64,000 bases of DNA, taken from assembly GCA_963731735.1 (NCBI GenBank), contig CAVSWO010000002.1, positions 402,891-466,890 of the forward strand, in the 5' to 3' direction. The notes beneath the pieces are model-generated. The model did not search any database. It had not been told where the DNA came from and worked only from the letters and a program-made list of their open reading frames with translations. The stretch comes from Candidatus Kerfeldbacteria bacterium (GTDB taxonomy: Bacteria; Patescibacteriota; Patescibacteriia; SBBC01; CAIJZX01). Position numbers and translations under genes: made by a program. Positions 3,427 through 37,004 of this stretch are shown here, piece after piece (position 1 is the stretch's first letter; the number at the start of each line of letters is the position of its first letter).

Positions 3427-3542
3427 CCCTGGCGCTGGCCTACTTTCCCCGCGGTATGCCCCGCAGTATCATCGGCGCTGGCTGGCTTAACGACCGTGTT
3501 CGGAATGGGAACGGGTGTGGCCCAGTCGCTCGAAGCACCAGG
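3427..3542 (-). rRNA. rrf: 5S rRNA
   Basis: Reverse complement reads CCTGGTGC...CACACCCGTTCCCATTCCGAACACGG...GCGCCGATGATACTGCGGGG...GCGCCAGGG, which matches the canonical 5S sequence. Confidence 0.9.
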
Positions 3543-3942
3543 GTACTGAGACGATGTCTCTGGTAATCAATGTAAAGTGAGGAAACAAGCGAACGCTTGC
3601 TTCTGGTTCTGGTGAATTCCGCACCAGCTTGGTGCAGTTTGAAGAATTATCTCGTCCTGTGCGTCCCAACAGTCCGTCGGAACGTGATCAGTTAGTACGG
3701 TTCGGCTCAACACCTTACGGTGCTTACACCTGCCGCCTATCAACCGTCATGTCCCTGGAGTCTTAACGAAAGCTAATCTTGAGGACGGCTTCACGCTTAG
3801 ATGCTTTCAGCGTTTATCCCTGCCGAACGTCGCTACCCAGCAATGCCCCTGGTGGGACAACTGGTACACGAGAGGTTCGTTCTTCCCGGTCCTCTCGTAC
3901 TAGGGAAGAATTCTCTCAAGTTTCGACGCCCACAGTGGATAG

Positions 3943-3994
<52 letters not shown>

Positions 3995-4007
3995 TGGCGA
4001 ACAGCCA

Positions 4008-4066
<59 letters not shown>

Positions 4067-4579
4067 GCGCCGTCGCTGTGGACGCTTGGGCGCGATCAGC
4101 CTGTTATCCCCGGAGTAACTTTTATCCGTTGAGCTTCCGCCGTCCTATATGCGTACGGTCGGATCACTAAGTTCTACTTTCGTAACTGCTCGGCGTGTAG
4201 GTCTTGCAGTAAAGCTGGCTTGTGGCGTTTGCCCTATCGATCCGGATTTCCATCCCGACCTAGCCAACCTTTGTAAACGCCTCCGTTACCTTTTAGGAGG
4301 CAACCGCCCCAGTCAAACTACCCACCAGACACTGTCTCCCGTGCCGGATTCAGGGCGCGAGGTGAGTGCACAGACACAGCGAAGCGTGGTATTTCACTGT
4401 TGACTCCACCGCAGCCTACGATCCGGACTTCAAAGTCTCCCACCTATGCTGAGCATCGCACATCTGTGCACAATGCCAAGTTGTAGTAAAGCTTCACGGG
4501 GTCTTTTCGTCCAATGATGGGTAACCGGCATCTTTACTCGTCTTGTAATTTCGCCGAGTCCCTCGTTGAGAGAGTTCTC

Positions 4580-4632
<53 letters not shown>

Positions 4633-5404
4633 CATTGTGCTGGGCGAGACAACCTACGGTTTTCTCGTCCCACGCCACTCTTTCCCTTTTGCGTGTCGCC
4701 ACCTCCATCCTCGCGCAAAGCAAGTTTGACGCTCGGCTGTTCGATGCTCGACCTGTCTTTTCTTTGTGCGGCGCTTCGCTATCGCTCGCGCCGCCTTGGG
4801 CTGAGTGGGGATACTCACTGTATCGCTGCATATTGCTATGCAGATCAGACTATATCTTCAACCTTGCTTTTAGAAAAAACAGAATGGGGCGGCGGCAGAC
4901 AAGCTTCGTTGTCGTCGCCCCGCAAGGTGCTCGGGTACTAGTCGTTGGGGGAATGCTAGGGTTCTTCATCGTGATCGCCCTCCTCATCTTCGGGTTCGGG
5001 CGGAACTTCTCGGTGAAGCTCAGTCGTAATCTCTTCGCGATCTATTCTCTGAAGCAGGACCTCCTTGGCCCAACTTAGAGACAGAATCTCGAGACACTTT
5101 ACTTGAGCTTCATCATCATTTGATGCTTCGAACTCATAATCTTGAAAGGTATCTCCGACCATCCAGCTTTCCTGGAAAGTCTGACGGATACGGTATTTCA
5201 TTTCACCTCTCCTTTCCCTGCGAATTGTCCGATCATTCGATCGGAGTTTTCCGCATATTTCCGCGTATTTATGGACCAATCACGAATTACTTCGTGATAG
5301 GCAGTTACTTTTCCTTACTGCACTGTTTCTGTTGGAACTCTTGGAACTGCTTACTTCCATAACCGTCGCTAGTCCTTCGCCCAACCACTTTCGTGATTGA
5401 GCAA
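4633..5404 (-). mobile_element. group I intron in 23S rRNA at E. coli-equivalent site ~1931
   Basis: The exon sequence CCTAAGGT|..|AGCGAAATTCC is interrupted by 772 nt. The 5' exon ends in U and the intron ends in G. It contains an S/P7'-like AAGATATAGTC (4848-4858), an R-like CAACGACTAG (4938-4947) and a P-like AATTCGCAGGGAAA (5213-5226). Confidence 0.75.
4956..5201 (-). CDS. intron-encoded small acidic protein (81 aa), no known homing-endonuclease motif
   Basis: ATG preceded by GGAAAGGAGAGGTGAA on the rRNA strand. Protein is MKYRIRQTFQESWMVGDTFQDYEFEASNDDEAQVKCLE...PEPEDEEGDHDEEP. No LAGLIDADG, GIY-YIG, HNH or His-Cys box. Confidence 0.45.
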   Translation of the reverse strand: MKYRIRQTFQESWMVGDTFQDYEFEASNDDEAQVKCLEILSLSWAKEVLLQRIDREEITTELHREVPPEPEDEEGDHDEEP

Positions 5405-6185
5405 ACCTTAGGACGGTTATAGTTACCGCCGGCGTTCATCAGCGCTTCGGATCAAGGCGTAAACCTCTCCCCTTAACGTTCTGACACTGGCCAGGCATCA
5501 GCCCCTATACATCAGCTTGCGCTTTGGCAGGGACCTAAGTTTTTGGTAAACAGTCGCTTGACGTCATTTAGCTGCGGCCCAGCTTGCGCTGGGCAGGCCA
5601 TATACCGAAGGTACGGCCATTGTTTTGCCGAGTTCCTAAACGAGGGTTCTCTCGTACGCCTTAGCAGATTTGCTGCCCACCCACCGGTGTCGGTTTACGG
5701 TACGGAAACGTCGTGACATAACCAGCGGACTTTTTCTCGGCCCCCGTGTCGTCTGTATTGGCTTGCCCTTGCGGGTTCGTCTGCGCCTTGCGGCCCGCAC
5801 ATAACCAAAGTACGGACAGATCTCACGGATGCGTCATCCACTGGGTAATCACGCCGTTGCACGGGAATATTAGCCCGTTGTCCATCAGCTACGCCTTTCG
5901 GCCTCGCCTTAGGGCCGGCTCACCCTGGGTCGATTTGCGGTGCCCAGGAAACCTTGGGTTTACGGCGGACGGGGTTCTCACCCGTCGTTGTGCTACTTAT
6001 ACCTACATTCTCACTTCGGTGCACTCCACGGTCGCTCGCGCTTCCGCTTCGGCGCACACCGAACGCTCCGCTACCACTGGAAGGTCATCACTGACCAACC
6101 AATCCTCAGCTTCGGTACGACACTTGAGTCCCGATACATTTTCGGCGCTTCGGGGCTCGACCAGTGAGCTGTTACGCTTTCTTTA

Positions 6186-6216
<31 letters not shown>

Positions 6217-8815
6217 TTGTTTGAGCCTCAAAACTACCTTTCAAACACTGAGTGTCGATTTAGGGACCTTAACTGGAGGTCTGGGTTCTTTCCCTCACGT
6301 CCGGTGGAGCTTAGCCCCCACGGACTGACTGCTGAACTGTAATACTGCGGCATTCGGAGTTTGGTTGGGGAGACTAGGATTGCTCCACGCCACCCCATTC
6401 AGTGCTCTACCACCGCAATGGATCATTCAACGCTAGCCCAAAAGCTATTTCGCGGAGAACCAGCTATCGCCGAGTTCGATTGGAATTTCTCCTCTACCCA
6501 CAACTCATCCCAGAGCGTTGCACGACTCACGGGTTCGGACCTCCACGACGTTTTACCGCCGCTTCATCCTGGTCATGGGTAGCTCACCCGGCTTCGGGTC
6601 TGTTACGGATCACGAGTGCCTCATGAGCATGATGATCACCGAAGTGACCGCCACACTCATTCAGCACATGCGCCGGTGAAGGCTCGCTTTCACTATGACA
6701 TCGGCCTGGACGGCCTTAGTCGAGCGATCCGTAATAACTCGTAGGTTCATTCTTCAATAGGCACGCTGCAACCCCGCCGAAGCGAGGCCGCAACTGTTTG
6801 TAAGCGATATGGTTTCAGATACTATTTCATTCCCCTCCCGGGGTGCTTTTCACCTTTCCCTCACGGTACTGGTTCACTATCGATCATCAACAATATTTAG
6901 TCTTGGAAGTCTAGTCCTCCCAGCTTCCCACAAGATTTCACGTGTCTCGTGGTACTTGAGGAATAGAACCAGTAAAGCTTTAACCGATTTCGCTTACGGG
7001 ACGATCGCCCTGTGTCGTAGGCCGTTCCAGGCCGCTTCAGCTATCGATTGGTCATATTCATTCTCCCACTGTAGAAACTGCAGTGAGAGAAAGAATCAAC
7101 ATGCGCTTTACTCCTAAAGATGTAAGCTTTAGACGTTCTACTCTCGCAACCCCCAACCAGTATGCGGGCTTACACCCTTGCACCCTTGCGGATGCAACTG
7201 GAAAGGTTTTGACTGTTCCCGTTTCGCTCGCCACTACTCAGGGAATGTTCTCCGCCAAAGGCGGAGGTTGTTTTCTGTTCCACTGGCTACTAAGATGTTT
7301 CAATTCACCAGGTTACCTTCGCATGCCCTATGTGTTCAGGCACGGATGTTCCGAAATTTCCTTCGGAACGGGTTTCCCCATTCGGACATCCCCGGATCAC
7401 AGGTTGGTTGCCACCTTCCCGAGGCTTTTCGCAGGCTCCGACGTCCTTCATCGTTCGTTGATGTCGAGGCATCCACCATACGCCCTTATGTGTTCCGACG
7501 AACTGTCGAGACACGCACCCCTGCACTTACGCAGGGGGTAGCAGGTACGAGATTCGATGTATCGCTTGATACACCAATCTTTTCTTCTTTCACCAGAACC
7601 ACAAACAGACGTTCGTGATTCTGCGAGTATGATGCTTATTTCCTCTTACTTTACTCTATGTCTTGATTACCCTTATTCAGTTGTCGATGATCGGGTGATT
7701 CGAAGAGAAACCGCTTCGGTTTCTCTTGCGACACATCTCTTCCCGCCAGGTGAGTCGACTCTCGTCGCTGCACCGAAAGCAAGTTTCGGTTCGCGACTTC
7801 GCGGTTCGACCCGTCTGTATCTGCGCGGCCTCGCTATCGCTCGGCCGCAGACTGGGTTAAAGAAATGTTCGAGATCAACAGCACTGGAGAGATCACGAAC
7901 GGGTCGTGATCAGATCAGTATGGTTGAAGAAAGAACAGGTGGATTGGTTTAAGGGAATGGAGCATCGAGAGTGCCCGCGAAGCCTACGAAGAGAAGCGGG
8001 GGGTACATTCCCTCAGATGCTCCACCACGGAGGTTGGCGTCCAGCGGGACGTGGGAGTTGTTTCCGGCTCGCTTTTCGTTCGCCGTTCCGCACGTCCCGC
8101 CGGGACAAAAGGTCGAGAGATGAGAAGATTGCTCTTCTCCAGCTGCTGTCGGAGGCTGAATTCACGACCAACTGTTTCTCCCGACCAGTAATCTCCAGGA
8201 GGGCGTCCGCGGTTTTCCGCATGCGCCGTGCATGTGACCACAGAAGTGATCGCCACGAACGCTCCTGCCTGGAGTCGGGGAGCCCTCATGTATCCGGGCA
8301 AGGATGAGGACGTGTTCCCCGAATAAGGTTGCGCCGATGTCCCGCCGCCGACTTCTTCTCCCCCAGAGAAGGTTAGCAGCATCGATCGACGCAACAGCTG
8401 GTCGGGCCCGCGACTGTCGGATGATTTTGTGCGCTTGCGCGCTGCCATCACGAACTACGGGCGGGCCCGATAGATTGAAGAGACGTTCCAGTGTACGCCT
8501 GCGCGGACAGCCGAACCGCTGTCTGGCAATTGTTCCTCGAACGTCTCATATTTTGAAGAGCGAAGTAGGATCACGCACGGCATGAGACTGCTTCGGACTT
8601 CAAGTGGTAAAAAGAGCTGGAGACTGAAAAACCGCCCGTCGGCGGCTCATTTTTGGACAGACACGTGTACGCGCTATCAGCTAGCCGTCGACATTCTCCT
8701 TGCGGTTGGTCTGTTCCATATGAACCGTCATCATTTATTAGTGGGCTCAGCATACAGGTTTTGTTTGTCTGCGTCAAGGCGGATTCGGGACAACCGGGGG
8801 AAAATATCCGGAAAG

Positions 8816-30611: not shown

Positions 30612-31221
30612 ATTCCTAAAAATATCCACAGGCCGACTGGTTGTAGCTCTTGTCGCCCATTTTGGGAGGTGATATTCTGCCTATCCGCTTATTCACTAAT
30701 CGCGCAATCATGCTCGAAGACGACATGATAGACGGTGACGATACCCAATCCGACGAGATGGGTGACGACGCCAGTCTCGAGGAAGCCCAAGAGGAAGAAA
30801 TGGCTGCCGACGACGACGGCGAAGAAACGGAATAACGCAGTATTTTTCGCCCGGCCAACGGATGTTGGCCGGGCTTCGGTATAAAAAAACGACCCCGAGC
30901 TCGAGATCGTTCCTGCCTTTGTATGTTTGGATGCGAGTGAGCATCCGTCGGCCGATTCCACTGCGTCCATCGAGGTTCCCGGTGAGTCATCATGACTCAA
31001 GTGGTTCCTTTGGAACCCGCATTGGTTCTGCCCAGATGGCGTAGGGATGGGCGGTCCGAGCTCGGGGTGGGGAAATGATTCCGGCACAACCACTAGTGGC
31101 TAGCCGGGGTGATCCGTGGGAAGGGGCGCCATGCGTACCTCCTTTACTTCCTTGTAGGACCGTCCGGAATCTTCGCGAAACCGGATTCAAGTAGCATGCA
31201 CCTCTTTCAAAACATGGTCAA

Positions 31222-31250
31222 GTGGAAAAAAGCAACCCCGAAGGGTTGCT
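31222..31250 (-). terminator. rho-independent terminator (minus strand)
   Basis: An A6 run precedes the gcaaccc-cgaa-gggttgc hairpin on the plus strand, which gives a hairpin plus U-tract on the minus strand. It overlaps the stop codon of the 31249-31500 ORF. Confidence 0.6.
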
Positions 31251-31603: not shown

Positions 31604-32572
31604 ATGGTTATCGAGTTACGCGGTCCCGATACGTTTCGTTCGCAGCAGCGGCTGAACCAGCTGCAACGAGCATTTCGTGAAAAACACGATCCACGCGGTT
31701 TGAGTATGCGGTGGCTGGATGGACAGACAGCCAGTTTTGAAGACATTCGCGACGCGGTCACGGCCAGCGGCTTTTTCTCGACAAAAAAATTTATTGCGCT
31801 GAATTATTACCAACCGAAAAAATCCCCGGTTCGGGGTGAACAATTGATCGAAATACTCCAGCCGATCATAGCTTCCAAAGATTCGATTGTCGTAATTCGG
31901 GAAACAAGCAGCCAGGAGACTGACGCAGCCCGAAGGCGCACGAAAAAAATCGCTTTCAAACCCCTGGTACCAAAATCTAAACTTGAACTATTTGCGCCGC
32001 TGACTGATGCGGAACTTCGAAGTTGGATAACCTCCGAAATTAAACGACTCGGCGGGAACATGAAACCGGAGGCAGTGGAACGATGCCTGGTATTGTGCGG
32101 TCAAGACCTCTGGCGCTTGCATTCGGAATTGGAAAAGCTGGCCGCCTACGCAGGCGATCGGTCGATTGATGTGGCGATGGTGGAAGATCTGGTCCATTCA
32201 AGCGTCTCTTCAGATGTCTTCGCGCTGACCGATGCATTAGGCAATCGGCAGACGGCGGAAGCGCTGCGCTTGCTCGATCAGGAATTAACTTCGGGCAACC
32301 ACCCCTTGGCCCTAATCAGTCTACTGGCGAATCATGTTCGGCGTTTATGGTTGATAAGCCGGGCGGCTCAAGCCGGCCAGAAACCCCAGCAGATTGCCGA
32401 ACAATTCCATCTCCATCCGTATGTGGTCCAAAAAGGCTTGGCCCAAGCCCGCCAAGCGCCAATCGGGTTACTGCAACGCTGGCACCACCAACTTATGCAG
32501 ACTGACTTGGCACTCAAAAGCACGCCGTTGGACGCGGCCACGCTGCTGACTCTGCTGATTGTTCGGGATTAA
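31604..32572 (+). CDS. holA: DNA polymerase III delta subunit
   Basis: 322 aa with the delta-subunit architecture (GQDLWRLHSELEKLAAY..., C-terminal helical domain). Confidence 0.7.
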   Translation: MVIELRGPDTFRSQQRLNQLQRAFREKHDPRGLSMRWLDGQTASFEDIRDAVTASGFFSTKKFIALNYYQPKKSPVRGEQLIEILQPIIASKDSIVVIRETSSQETDAARRRTKKIAFKPLVPKSKLELFAPLTDAELRSWITSEIKRLGGNMKPEAVERCLVLCGQDLWRLHSELEKLAAYAGDRSIDVAMVEDLVHSSVSSDVFALTDALGNRQTAEALRLLDQELTSGNHPLALISLLANHVRRLWLISRAAQAGQKPQQIAEQFHLHPYVVQKGLAQARQAPIGLLQRWHHQLMQTDLALKSTPLDAATLLTLLIVRD

Positions 32573-32832
32573 GCTGAGCGCTTAACGGCGGCGGCAATTC
32601 GGGATTTCTTGCGGGCGGCCGTATTGGCGTGAATGACCCGATGCTGGGAGGCTTTATCGAGGGCCTTCGTGAACTGCACCTGAATTGCTTTGGCTTTGGC
32701 CAGATCTTTAGTGACTAACGCTTTGCGCAACAGAACATTGAGCTTCTTGAGCTGATGCTGGACGCGCAAATTCCGGGCACGACGAGTTTGGGCTTGACGG
32801 AGCGCCTTATAGGAGGCGCGTTTAACTGGCAT
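32569..32832 (-). CDS. rpsT: 30S ribosomal protein S20
   Basis: MPVKRASYKALRQAQTRRARN...AARKKSRIAAAVK. Confidence 0.9.
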   Translation of the reverse strand: MPVKRASYKALRQAQTRRARNLRVQHQLKKLNVLLRKALVTKDLAKAKAIQVQFTKALDKASQHRVIHANTAARKKSRIAAAVKRSA

Positions 32833-32972
32833 GAAACTTGTGAGAATAAGTCAATAAGGACAGGCGGAGTCTAGCAGCCGACGGTAATTTTTGCAAGTCC
32901 CGATCGGATTAAGACTCCGGTTTGGGCTTGACGGGGCAAGCTGAAAGAGTAGGCTAAAAAATAGCTATTTGT

Positions 32973-33185
32973 ATGGTGCTGGTTGGAGCTCGGCCCGAGC
33001 GTTCGCACCGACGCCCGGAAAGCATGGGTTGCCCCCTCCGATTCGGTGGTTTACCCGAAATACTGGGGCTCGAATCAGCGGATCAAGCTTGTTTCCAGCT
33101 ATCTTCCAAGACGCTCCATCGGCTGGACGCAATACCAGCACCATGTTCTCAGCCTTCCGTTCCCCCGGAAGGCTTTTTCTTTTCT
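32973..33185 (+). ncRNA. candidate structured small RNA (unknown family)
   Basis: An 11-bp perfect long-range helix (ATGGTGCTGGT at 32973-32983 pairs with ACCAGCACCAT at 33134-33144), then a gccttccg/cggaaggc hairpin followed by tttttctttt. No SD is present and the region is not protein-like. Confidence 0.35.
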
Positions 33186-33363
33186 TGACGCCCGTTTCGG
33201 ACAGGGGTAGGGTGACCTTAACTCTGACTCAAGCACAAATAAAGCCGAAAATCGGCCCGTTTGGCTTAGTCAGTCCGTTCATTGACAATCCATCTTCTTG
33301 ATGGCTGATTGTCATACCCTTGCCGGAAATTTCTCAGGTGTACATCCCCCAATGGAGGTTCCC

Positions 33364-34106: not shown

Positions 34107-37004
34107 ATGCGCTGGCATGCATCGCTTTTGATGGCGTTGCTGATCAGTAGCCTGGTTCCGTCATCCACGCACGCCAATGAGTCTCCGTGGTCATCCGAAG
34201 CACTGATCGTCCAAGCGGCGGACTTTGAGGGCTGGAACGACGGTCTCTACGTCAAGTTCTTGGCCCCGAGCCTCGCGTACGGTCTGTCGGTGGTGACCGA
34301 ACCGGTTGTCAGCAACAGTCCGACGGTAACGGTCCAGCTGATGGCCAACCTGATTGCGCATGGATATGGCTGGGAATATTTCAGTTCGCATGGGAACGAC
34401 TGCCTGGCAGTCGAGTTCTATGCAAGCTCGAGCATACGTGATGCAACCATAACCAGCCTGTTGCAGTCAGGCGGCTACACTGCTGATGATCTAATCCGAG
34501 TTGATACTCTCTCGGGTGTGTATGGCATCGGACTCAAACCCCACTTCTTCACGCGTGGGTACTGGTTCGGCACGTTCGTTCACGTTTCGGCTTGCAAAGG
34601 GGCGATCCTGTCCCAAGGCATGCCGGGCGCGCTCGGATTCGTGGGCTACAATTACAGCGTGGCCTACTATCAGTCACGGCAAGCTGATTCGTTGTTCTAC
34701 CATCGACTCGGCGGCTTCACGACGCCCCAGGCACGAACGCTCGGTCAGGCGGTCAGCGGACTCCAGCTTAGCTGGGCCGGTGATCCAAATGCTGAGTTGG
34801 CACCAATGGTGTCGGCGACTGATCTGATCTACAACGAACGGATCAGTGGCGATGTCACGCGGTACGTGAAATTCAGCGGACCGATGAACACCGCTCCAGC
34901 CGAAAATGTAGTACGGGCGTCCGGAGCAATGCAGATCGTGAATGCCTTTTGGCAGGGAAATGACCAACTGGCATTTACAGTTCGGCCTCGCTATAAAGGG
35001 CCCGGCCAAGTCTGGATTGCGGCTGATACGACTTCGGGCATCTTCGGATCAGCCAAAAGCTATCCGGGACTGATTCCGTTAGTCGGGAACGTCAACGGTC
35101 CGTCGAGCATCGGCGGTCCGGGGACGAATGGCTACGCTCCGTTCGGGGACTATGCAGTTGCGATGTTCTCAGATGCGGGCGGAGATAACCCGGCGGCTGC
35201 AGTTACTGCCTTTACGGCAGTGGCTGCACCAAGCGGCATCCAGGCAAACTGGTCGGTCGAATCGGAAGCCGAAACGGAGCGGTATCGGATTGAACGCGCG
35301 AGCGATTGGTCCGGACCGTTTGTCACCGTTGGTGAAGTGCCGGCTACCCAGGCGCATCACTATCAACTCGACGATCCAAATGGTCAGGTGGAGGACATCT
35401 ACCGTTTGGTCGAAGTCGAAACCAGCGGTCGGGAACTGCGGCAAGCTGAGGAACAAGCTGTGGCCTCACTCAACATTGCTCCTGACCAGACTGTTACCGC
35501 GTCAGAAGCAGACAGCCTGGCCTCAGCGCTGCTACAGCGGTATCCGACCCAGACCACCATGGCTCCCCAGGATGTCCAACCGATCTACGGATGGGTGGCA
35601 GTTATTCCGGATGAGTCCTGGCGTTGGGCGATTCAGCCGCTGGTCAATTACCACCAGTCGCAAGGCATGGTGGCGCAGGCGATGACGCTGGATGAGTTAG
35701 GCAGTTGGGCAAACGAAACGGCGTTTTCCAGCTGGGCGGTCCATTACGGACTATGCTATTTGGTGAATTGTGCGGATGCCAACAATTGGATCACGCACGA
35801 CGACCCGAATTCGTATGTCAACGGATGGTCCTATCCCGGCTACGGATCGCAAGCGCAATATGACCTTCTGCCAACCCATTACCTGCTGGATCCGGTGGAT
35901 GAGCAGCCACACTCACAAACCTGGTTCACTCGGCACTTTGCGTGTGACTGGTTAAACGGGGCTGATGTTGACGGGGATTCCTTACCGGACATCGCCTATG
36001 GACGTCTGCCAGCTCGAACGCCTGAAGAATTAGCGGTTATGGTCGCCAAGACAATCACCGGTGATCAGCAAACGACCGAGCACCCGATTAGCGTCTGGGG
36101 AGAATTCCGGAGCTTGTCAGGGCTTGATGGACCATTCGCACAGCTGCTCACCGACAGCACCATCACCACCCGTCTTCAGGGGAAAGATGTCCGAAAGTTG
36201 TATAACACCGACGCCAACCCTTTGGCCTACTGGTATCGGGAACAGCAAGCGATTGCCGAATTGGTGGACGGTCGGACGATCATCCAAACCAGCGGCACGC
36301 AGTCGAATCGCTCAAAGTGGGCGATTTGGCTGGACCAGACGCAAGGATTTTCCTGGTCGCAAGTACCGGACCATACGGTTTTACCGTTACTGGTCGCGAC
36401 TAGCTGCGACATTCTCGATTTTGACCGCTCCGAAGATCCAACCTTTGGACGACCGCTGATCGAGCGTGCGCTGCTAGAACTTCAGAAGGGTCCGTTTGCA
36501 GCTGTGGGCTTCACCCGTGGCACCTGGCAACACGCCGACTATATGGCGGCCGATGAATTCTATCGACTGCTCTACGGAGTGGGCGCACGGTCAATCGGGG
36601 AAGCCTGGATAACAGCGCTGCATAACGTCGTTATTCAGCAGCCGGGTTACAAGTCACTGATGCTGGAAGCGATCATGCTGGGCGATCCAGCCGTCACAAT
36701 TCCGGGTATGCGGGTCTTGCAAACCACGGATGTGGAGGACATTTTGCCAGGGAGGCTGGCTATGACGGTTTCTCCTAATCCGGGTTTTGGGGCTCGGCAA
36801 ATTTCCTTCGGAGTGACGGAGGCGGACCATGTCCAACTGGCCATTTTTGATCTGCAGGGTCGAAAAGTTATCACCCTGATTGATCGCTGGATGCAGGCTG
36901 GGCACCACACGGTTCGTTGGGTGCCGCAACAACCGGGTCTGTATTTCGTTCGGGTCCAAGTCGGATCGGATGCAATCGTCAAGAAGGTGGTCGTGCTTCA
37001 GTAG
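34107..37004 (+). CDS. secreted protein with T9SS C-terminal sorting domain; N-terminal clan CD (gingipain/C25-like) cysteine peptidase candidate
   Basis: Signal peptide. The candidate catalytic dyad is SSHGN...VHVSACKG. The C-terminal ~80 aa (VSPNPGFGARQISF...VQLAIFDLQGRKVITL...AGHHTVRW...GLYFVRVQVGSDAIVKKVVVLQ) match the T9SS C-terminal domain pattern. Confidence 0.7.
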   Translation: MRWHASLLMALLISSLVPSSTHANESPWSSEALIVQAADFEGWNDGLYVKFLAPSLAYGLSVVTEPVVSNSPTVTVQLMANLIAHGYGWEYFSSHGNDCLAVEFYASSSIRDATITSLLQSGGYTADDLIRVDTLSGVYGIGLKPHFFTRGYWFGTFVHVSACKGAILSQGMPGALGFVGYNYSVAYYQSRQADSLFYHRLGGFTTPQARTLGQAVSGLQLSWAGDPNAELAPMVSATDLIYNERISGDVTRYVKFSGPMNTAPAENVVRASGAMQIVNAFWQGNDQLAFTVRPRYKGPGQVWIAADTTSGIFGSAKSYPGLIPLVGNVNGPSSIGGPGTNGYAPFGDYAVAMFSDAGGDNPAAAVTAFTAVAAPSGIQANWSVESEAETERYRIERASDWSGPFVTVGEVPATQAHHYQLDDPNGQVEDIYRLVEVETSGRELRQAEEQAVASLNIAPDQTVTASEADSLASALLQRYPTQTTMAPQDVQPIYGWVAVIPDESWRWAIQPLVNYHQSQGMVAQAMTLDELGSWANETAFSSWAVHYGLCYLVNCADANNWITHDDPNSYVNGWSYPGYGSQAQYDLLPTHYLLDPVDEQPHSQTWFTRHFACDWLNGADVDGDSLPDIAYGRLPARTPEELAVMVAKTITGDQQTTEHPISVWGEFRSLSGLDGPFAQLLTDSTITTRLQGKDVRKLYNTDANPLAYWYREQQAIAELVDGRTIIQTSGTQSNRSKWAIWLDQTQGFSWSQVPDHTVLPLLVATSCDILDFDRSEDPTFGRPLIERALLELQKGPFAAVGFTRGTWQHADYMAADEFYRLLYGVGARSIGEAWITALHNVVIQQPGYKSLMLEAIMLGDPAVTIPGMRVLQTTDVEDILPGRLAMTVSPNPGFGARQISFGVTEADHVQLAIFDLQGRKVITLIDRWMQAGHHTVRWVPQQPGLYFVRVQVGSDAIVKKVVVLQ

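Follow-up and report, generated by a model that had tools for sequence, protein, structure and literature searches.

The intergenic region considered here lies in a 64,000-nucleotide (nt) stretch of contig CAVSWO010000002.1 from a Candidatus Kerfeldbacteria bacterium, referred to below as the window, and separates two divergently oriented genes. To the left is rpsT (32569-32832, minus strand; Pfam Ribosomal_S20p), preceded by holA, and to the right is a gene for a protein of 246 amino acids (aa) with a signal-peptide-like N terminus and no Pfam family, followed by that for a 965-aa C25-type peptidase. A preliminary description of the region had proposed a structured RNA of ~210 nt between rpsT and a secreted-protein gene, closed by a long-range helix of 11 base pairs (bp), ending in an intrinsic terminator and matching no known family. 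The helix, which we term P1, is exact as claimed: its strands, ATGGTGCTGGT and ACCAGCACCAT, are perfect complements with a 150-nt spacer. The terminator is likewise present as a 9-bp hairpin followed by TTTTCTTTTC, and the intergenic setting is as stated. By itself, however, the repeat is not significant. The window contains four perfect 11-mer inverted repeats with spacers of 50-250 nt against a mean of 3.46 (maximum 10) on shuffling, which is the chance level for 64 kilobases (kb). The folding z-score of the window copy is modest and alike on both strands (-2.84 on the plus strand and -3.13 on the minus strand). It is the conservation and covariation of the feature in related genomes, and nothing else, that mark it as more than chance.

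Loci for comparison were taken from the surroundings of holA in species-representative genomes and from contigs encoding the closest holA proteins, and the survey of distribution was confined to the holA/rpsT neighbourhood. The closest holA proteins have 40-50% identity and, among named genomes, are those of Candidatus Kerfeldbacteria and other Patescibacteria. In three of the loci (L001, L002 and L005 in our numbering), BLAST gives a weak match to the candidate's 5' end at ~110 nt past the start of rpsT, and these loci share with the window one block at the 5' end, GGUGCUGGUUGG, and one at the 3' end, CACCAGCACC, as well as motifs between the two. Ten distinct copies are recognized, counting that of the window (an eleventh, in L215, is near-identical to that of L005). 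All lie on the opposite strand to rpsT, the homologous element is 133-187 nt in length, and the window and each related locus contain a single copy. With syntenic homologues in nine other genomes or contigs, and compensatory changes in all helices, the proposal of a structured non-coding RNA is upheld.

Independent minimum-energy folds share a common plan. P1 (8-13 bp) is followed by one unpaired U, by P2, a composite hairpin of variable length, and by P3, a composite hairpin bearing a C-rich motif; a short, purine-rich linker, often GAAC, then leads to P4, which has a large loop and a 3' strand directly adjoining that of P1. The architecture is that of a four-way junction, in which P1 closes three local hairpins, and all eleven copies surpass dinucleotide shuffles in folding, with z-scores from -1.4 to -5.4 (L207, -5.2). 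Because full-RNA MAFFT alignments are unreliable in the interior, a covariance model, R1, was built from the L005 and L215 pair only, with the structure set by hand. It recovers seven loci, with bit scores of 58 for L201, 40 for L208, 38 for L004, 28 for L003, 21 for L001, 18.5 for L002, and 17 for the window (E 0.026 in 122 kb), and nothing else convincing across 726 kb of loci from the Candidate Phyla Radiation (CPR). Standard pairs account for 91.3% of cells in the alignment obtained with R1, a share that falls to 76.3% on shuffling of the 3' partners and to 33-53% on sliding of the partners. Of the 45 pairs, 23 have changed on both sides, and not one of these measures was attained in 500 shuffles. 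P4 is fully paired (100%) wherever the alignment recovers it, with changes on both sides in seven of its eight pairs. A stem at P4 is present in every homologue, each time with a different sequence, and the P2 stem too differs in essentially every genome, its outer part covarying as GGAC/GUCC, GGGGCU/GGCCCC, GGUGC/GCACC, GGAUCG/CGAUCC and GAAGU/ACUUC. In a stricter test, hairpins were required to be perfect over 6 bp or more and to stop 0-1 nt short of the P1 3' strand; five of the ten copies have one, against 0.75 expected when interiors are shuffled.

The behavior of P1 is different in kind, in that its sequence, GGUGCUGGU, is kept in eight of ten homologues. Where it does change, the changes are compensatory: GAU/AUC in L002, GUAUGUUGG/CCAGCAUAU in L206 and CGCUCUGGU/GCCAGGGCG in L207. 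The last two loci also fix the strand, since the G.U pairs of their P1 helices would be A.C mismatches on the minus strand; U-runs and promoters are further indicators of the plus strand. L206 and L207 are counted as probable members on the grounds of synteny, architecture and motifs. Conservation extends to the junction nucleotides, CUGR between P2 and P3 and GAAC before P4. A possible pseudoknot between 5' UUGGAG and the P4 loop, which forms 6 bp in the window, is unsupported in L004 and L206 and was discarded. Taken as a whole, these observations make it highly probable, in our judgment, that the element is a genuine non-coding structured RNA gene.

The RNA appears to be a single-copy gene conserved beside rpsT in a Kerfeldbacteria-like clade of Patescibacteria, and the family is so far restricted to this one order-level clade. 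Even among related loci, the element is not at the rpsT-side position in L205, L211 and L216, and in L214 its position is occupied by a different inverted-repeat element. The holA-rpsT synteny extends to more distant CPR loci (among them Falkowbacteria and Parcubacteria), with a gap after rpsT that is usually ~25-145 nt and in which R1 finds no match. A weak R1 match in L028, just past the end of holA where other loci have rpsT, was judged to be noise; no rpsT match was found in that locus. A scan of metagenomes with the pattern GGTGCTGRTTG..C..AYCAGCACC returned at least 120 chance matches, nearly all in GC-rich coding sequence, and among the matches listed there was neither a P4-like hairpin containing the loop motif nor a suitable context; the query alone came back when rpsT homologues were sought at E<=1e-8. 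The records for L002, L006-L008 and many others are titled 'uncultured Gammaproteobacteria bacterium' (third-party annotation, metagenome-assembled genomes), a submitter taxonomy that looks wrong because their holA/rpsT loci group with those of Kerfeldbacteria and Falkowbacteria.

From its flanking signals, we infer that the RNA would be transcribed separately, from a promoter that places its start at ~32962 to an end at ~33184, giving a transcript of ~220 nt. Nine of the ten distinct homologues have a TAnnnT element of the TAGGGT, TATACT or TAGACT class 8-21 nt ahead of the P1 block, and in L002, L005/L215, L201 and L206 the -10-like element is so near that predicted transcription would begin at P1 itself. 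At the other end, a terminator or U-run lies downstream of nine of the ten distinct copies. Six of them (window, L001, L003, L004, L206 and L207) have a canonical terminator hairpin with a U-run, and L002, L005/L215 and L201 have a U-run directly after P1 with no separate hairpin; L208 has neither. A standard sigma-70 scan reports none of the promoter sites described here, and in the case of the RNA promoter this is because its -10 element is G-rich. There is an apparent promoter consensus for the lineage, TTGACR-N16/17-TAGGGT with a G-rich -10 (also TAGGCT, TAAGGT, TAGACT and TATACT), and sites of this type occur in the window (three sites), L001, L002, L004, L005, L205, L206, L208 and L211. 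A block upstream of rpsT, GGCGGAGTGTAnCA, is also conserved in related loci.

Three other explanations of the locus deny that it is an independent RNA gene. The simplest is that it encodes a small protein, or that its structure is fortuitous. An ATG-started 71-aa open reading frame (ORF; 32973-33188) does cover the element, as the preliminary description had pointed out while doubting its significance, and the window copy, which is GC-rich, has no stop in any of the three frames. However, among frames taken relative to the conserved 5' block, none is open in all copies, and L004, L207 and L208 have stops in all three. The copies differ in length by non-multiples of three, the ORF has no Shine-Dalgarno (SD) sequence, and substitutions in the stems are compensatory. 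The ORF is a by-product of GC-rich sequence, and we attach almost no probability to this explanation. The preliminary description had also left open whether the element is a small RNA (sRNA) or a riboswitch or leader of the downstream gene. A cis-acting role, in which the terminator would steer expression of the secreted-protein and C25-peptidase genes, would fit the co-orientation of the next gene at nine of ten loci, and a multi-helix junction with an immediate intrinsic terminator is typical riboswitch anatomy. Nevertheless, a promoter of the form TTGACR-N16/17-TA(G/A)GGT stands between the terminator and the next gene, being found in L002, L004, L005, L206 and L215, and genomes that do not have the RNA (L205 and L211) retain both the gene and this promoter. 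The start codon of the next gene is roughly 170-530 nt beyond the RNA, and at L207 the neighbor is a convergent uvrB. Furthermore, L002, L005 and L201 have no separate terminator hairpin, no convincing anti-terminator could be seen by eye, and there is no Rfam riboswitch match. On the strength of the terminator, the next gene's own promoter, the distance and the convergent uvrB, a stand-alone sRNA appears to be the best reading and a leader or riboswitch role unlikely; the latter is already largely refuted, and we would give it very little credence. Of the three options in the preliminary description, the sRNA is the one to be preferred.

The third possibility is that the element is a DNA-level repeat or the remnant of a mobile element, similar to a miniature inverted-repeat transposable element (MITE), whose inverted ends mimic an RNA helix. 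It was raised because separate ~110-nt inverted-repeat elements lie beside the RNA in some loci, or replace it, and because Y1 transposase genes are found ~2 kb away in L211 and L214. The arms of these elements are perfect over 16-19 bp, CCAGCACCACUUUU...AAAAGUGGUGCUGG (= CCAGCACCACTTTT...AAAAGTGGTGCTGG; CCAGCACCAC...GUGGUGCUGG), and have the P1 duplex sequence in opposite topology, around interiors that are variable and AT-rich; to judge from this organization, the elements look like MITE-like inverted repeats at the DNA level. None is found in the 64-kb window, in which the P1-type 8-mer is mildly enriched (7 copies against ~2.3 expected). The patchy presence of the RNA, including its replacement in L214, would also suit such an origin. 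Against it, the RNA is single-copy in the window and at each related locus, with no dispersed copies there, its P1 carries G.U pairs and compensatory changes, its three internal hairpins covary, its loop motifs are conserved, it has its own predicted promoter and terminator, and no target-site duplication is seen around it. We consider an origin of this kind to be very improbable.

If the element is a stand-alone sRNA, its conserved loops offer the most direct indication of how it might work. A motif, (GA)GGUCCCCCCUCC, persists on the 5' side of P3 as the stems around it change, its window version being GGUUGCCCCCUCC (33027-33039). A UCCCCCCUCC-type motif is kept in the window, L001, L002, L005, L215 and L201, with a shorter variant, GGUCCCCAUCC, in L003. 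The C-run of this motif has a predicted unpaired probability of 0.66-0.68 in the window, L002, L005/L215 and L201. The second motif, GCACCUCCA(U), lies in the P4 loop of L001, L004, L005/L215, L206 and L208, and is replaced by ACCUCC in L201 and L002 and by GCUCCAU in the window; L207 has GUACCUCC in P3. It is predicted to be unpaired with a probability of 0.50-0.90 in 10 of 11 copies (0.34 in L206), compared with a mean of 0.32-0.38 for the whole molecule. Within GCACCUCCA is CACCUCC, the anti-SD core of 16S ribosomal RNA (rRNA), and ribosome-binding sites of the GGAGG type (as at 33353-33357) are used by genes of these loci. In the mechanism that we propose, the RNA would act in trans through these two conserved, mostly unpaired C-rich elements, UCCCCCCUCC displayed in an internal loop of P3 and GCACCUCCA in the large loop of P4. 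These would pair with the G-rich SD regions of mRNAs and so block ribosome loading, and the junction and P1 would act as a scaffold, possibly also as a site for protein recognition. Pairing with SD regions would be the most economical mechanism, given that the motifs are conserved, predicted to be unpaired and similar to the anti-SD, and that GGAGG-type sites are in use. It is also the weakest step of the argument, and we put it forward tentatively, as something that may well not hold. The explanation as a whole, that of a stand-alone sRNA gene with a four-way junction acting on SD regions in trans, is the best available, and we would put its chances at about even. When duplexes were sought with 40 SD-bearing ORF starts of the window, a single outlier emerged at -26.2 kcal/mol (mean -14.6, standard deviation 3.6), formed by GCCCCCUC with GAGGGGGC at the start (39915) of an ORF that has no annotation, and this result was given no weight.

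A number of points weigh against this explanation. The alignment from which covariation was counted had been fitted to the model and is hence biased towards structure, and L206 and L207 score at noise level with R1. The window copy is the most divergent of all: CUGA and GAAC are not evident in it, the fold of P2 and P3 is ambiguous, and its P4 loop has GCUCCA instead of CACCUCC. The P3 C-run is predicted to be paired in L001 (unpaired probability 0.18), only ACCCCA is present in L003, and the ACCUCC of L207 lies in P3 and not in P4. Promoter, start and ends are all predicted from sequence. There is also a difficulty of principle, in that any strong SD would be a partner for a motif identical to the anti-SD, which gives no account of specificity, and a base-pairing RNA needs neither a strongly conserved P1 nor conserved junction nucleotides. 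It is the near-invariance of P1, the conserved junction nucleotides and the compactness of the junction that make recognition by a protein, or through tertiary structure, the main rival. Here, P1 (GGUGCUGG/CCAGCACC), the junction nucleotides and the loops would form a specific surface for a protein, and the RNA, perhaps with a housekeeping role, would serve as a scaffold, a decoy or a sequestering RNA; in one version, it would mimic the 3' tail of 16S rRNA for a tail-binding factor, with no pairing to mRNA. P1 is near-invariant in eight of ten copies, though pairing alone would permit change, and its duplex sequence recurs in opposite topology in the separate elements with 16-19-bp arms in L003, L201 and L214. 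CUGR and GAAC are conserved, and the linkers of the four-way junction are near zero in length. In L004, a P4 segment, GGUGAAGUCGU-GGCACCUCCAUUA, resembles the 3' end of 16S rRNA minus helix 45, as judged against the Escherichia coli sequence. On the other hand, no conserved neighboring gene points to a partner protein, the P1 sequence is altered in L206 and L207, Rfam gives no match to 6S, signal recognition particle (SRP), RNase P, transfer-messenger (tm) or Y RNA, and the local hairpins bear no likeness to 6S RNA, which forms a rod with a central bubble. We regard such a protein-binding role as possible but rather unlikely. In a further reading, the RNA would be a CPR-specific mimic of the anti-SD, a stable four-way-junction scaffold presenting a copy of the 16S 3' tail (GCACCUCCA, with GGUGAAGUCGU before it in some copies) together with a second C-rich loop, and the P1 duplex, which recurs in the separate inverted-repeat elements, would be where a dedicated protein recognizes it. 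This is decidedly speculative, and we think it improbable. If true, the RNA would compete with ribosomes for the SD, or sequester a factor with affinity for the 16S tail, and would be a global governor of translation in very small genomes with few regulators.

That the RNA belongs to no known family, as the preliminary description had surmised by eye, is supported by scans with Rfam 15. At the gathering threshold, only 23S, 5S and two tRNAs are found in the whole window; at E<=10, the locus gives a partial match of the terminator only to ctRNA_p42d (17.6 bits, compared with 50 required) and noise, and at E<=1 seven homologous loci give nothing at the RNA. The literature searched contained no report of sRNAs from the CPR or Kerfeldbacteria, or of this motif. 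The RNA appears to represent a previously undescribed, clade-restricted structured sRNA family. Its closest functional parallel may lie in the RsaE/RoxS-type sRNAs of Firmicutes, the C-rich loops of which block SD regions, and the Rsa RNAs with a UCCC motif (PMC2790875). Like RsaE/RoxS, it is a stand-alone sRNA with its own (predicted) promoter and an intrinsic terminator, and has at least two C-rich motifs, predicted to be unpaired, that are complementary to SD sequences. Unlike them, it has a closed four-way junction with a conserved closing helix, is about twice as long, comes from another phylum, and shows no relation in sequence or in Rfam. The likeness to the 3' tail of 16S rRNA (GAUCACCUCCUUA) is in the 7-nt anti-SD core held by the P4 consensus GCACCUCCA, and GGUGAAGUCGU of L004 also matches; this comparison was by eye with the E. 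coli sequence, there being no 16S gene in the window. The differences are that the RNA is separate, ~200 nt long and outside the rRNA operon, and that the window copy has only GCUCCA.

Other resemblances were pursued and set aside. With 6S RNA (RF00013), the element has in common a length of ~180-200 nt, paired ends, a single copy and possibly a housekeeping role in a reduced genome, but there is no RF00013 match at E<=10, and it has three covarying local hairpins in place of a rod with a central bubble. Four-way-junction riboswitches (such as SAM-I, yybP-ykoY and NiCo) likewise have a P1 that closes a junction of several helices, conserved nucleotides within it and a terminator immediately 3'; unlike these, the element matches no model, lies outside a 5' untranslated region, and has no class of downstream gene tied to its presence. 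A 5' similarity to the GGCUGGUCCGA-like sequence of Y RNA/YrlA is superficial, without an Rfam match, and rsr is not among the called neighbors (holA, rpsT, secreted proteins and C25 peptidase), the rest of the genome not having been searched for it. The CUGA...GAAC arrangement resembles a hammerhead core, but core positions vary (CUGG, CCGA) and Rfam gives no match. Features of SRP domain IV (GGAA and AGCA) are in the window copy only, the RNA is far too short for the CR-I/CR-V of RNase P and has no match to it, ARAGORN found no tmRNA, and there is no reverse transcriptase gene nearby that would suggest a retron. The CPR makes up a very large part of the diversity of bacteria, its members have reduced genomes and few are in culture, and to our knowledge almost nothing is known of its regulatory and structural RNAs. 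With a defined architecture, covariation support and conserved loops, the RNA is a ready seed for a new family model. If the anti-SD-like loops are functional, they would provide a concrete handle on post-transcriptional control in the CPR, and if a protein reads the conserved P1 duplex, the complex would be a new ribonucleoprotein.

The features of the window copy, its homologues and the inverted-repeat elements are collected in Table 1. In the minimum-energy fold of the window copy, GGAG (32985-88) pairs with CUCC (33036-39). Its P3 is aligned by R1 to GAGG-UCCCC-CCUCCG-CUGC-CGGAGG of L005, L215 and L201. The additional segment between P3 and P4 contains a GCUCG(A/U)A(C/U)-type motif in common with L001, L004, L206 and L208, which is not in the shorter copies.

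Table 1. Positions of the RNA, its predicted signals and related elements (numbering of the window or of the locus named; R1, covariance model)
Feature	Position	Strand	Basis or remark
P1 5' strand (ATGGTGCTGGT = AUGGUGCUGGU)	32973-32983	+	sequence read, fold
P2 arm, variable, window fold uncertain	32985-33025	+	fold; left as insertion by R1 alignment
P3 arm: outer GGGU/ACCC, internal loop UGCCC (C-rich), inner hairpin CCUCCG-AUU-CGGUGG	33026-33056	+	R1 alignment
C-rich motif GCCCCCUCC (family consensus UCCCCCCUCC)	33031-33039	+	conservation
Extra P3-P4 segment holding GCUCGAAUC	33057-33088	+	motif comparison
P4 hairpin (UUGUUUCCAGCU / GGCUGGACGCAA)	33089-33132	+	fold; 20-nt loop 33101-33120, GCUCCAU at 33113-33119
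P1 3' strand (ACCAGCACCAT = ACCAGCACCAU)	33134-33144	+	sequence read, covariation
-35-like TTGACG of putative RNA promoter	32928-32933	+	by eye; 16-nt spacer to -10
-10-like TAGGCT of putative RNA promoter	32950-32955	+	by eye; predicted start near 32962
Intrinsic terminator AGCCUUCCG-UUCCCC-CGGAAGGCU then UUUUUCUUUU	33151-33184	+	hairpin 33151-33174: 9 bp (6 GC), 6-nt loop
Next-gene promoter-like site TTGACG (33185-90)-N17-TAGGGT (33208-13), outside RNA	33185-33213	+	by eye
Divergent rpsT promoter-like site TTGCAA-N17-TAGACT, outside RNA	32868-32896	-	by eye
RNA copy, window	32973-33144
RNA copy, L001	5357-5543
RNA copy, L002	5362-5499
RNA copy, L003	2218-2353
RNA copy, L004	5363-5519
RNA copy, L005	5362-5513		near-identical relative L215 2546-2697
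RNA copy, L201	4000-4142
RNA copy, L206	3855-4022
RNA copy, L207	2198-2330
RNA copy, L208	3865-4021
~110-nt inverted-repeat elements	L003 2391-2492; L201 3848-3957; L214 2355-2460, 3852-3953		beside or replacing RNA

The second gene to the right of the RNA (34107-37004, plus strand) encodes the 965-aa protein, which is secreted and of the Peptidase_C25 family and has a C-terminal match to Por_Secre_tail of 25.5 bits, below the cutoff of 27. The domain is one for sorting in type IX secretion, and a match to it seems unusual in a lineage that is not Bacteroidota-like. The pair formed by a secreted protein of ~250 aa and a C25 peptidase is syntenic in L001-like loci (L202-L204), L208 and L211.

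Elsewhere in the window, a rod-like imperfect hairpin of ~190 nt at 30885-31075 on the plus strand (within 30885-31230) is closed by a 12-bp repeat, ACCCCGAGCTCG/CGAGCTCGGGGT. Its minimum free energy is -92.2 kcal/mol (z = -5.9), equalled by none of 200 shuffles. The ~350 nt in which it sits contain no convincing ORF and are bounded by a small acidic ORF and a zinc-ribbon gene's terminator. Rfam gives no match at E<=5, and related loci are dissimilar, having a FabA-like gene there instead. As far as the predicted fold is a guide, this hairpin may be a second uncharacterised structured RNA. The 23S rRNA gene (3427-7500, minus strand), which is followed by that for 5S, spans 3828 nt compared with the 2925 nt of its model, and contains ~900 nt of insertions. 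The 64 kb contain no 16S gene, so that the genes for rRNA are not linked, which, like the 23S insertions, we take to be typical of CPR bacteria.

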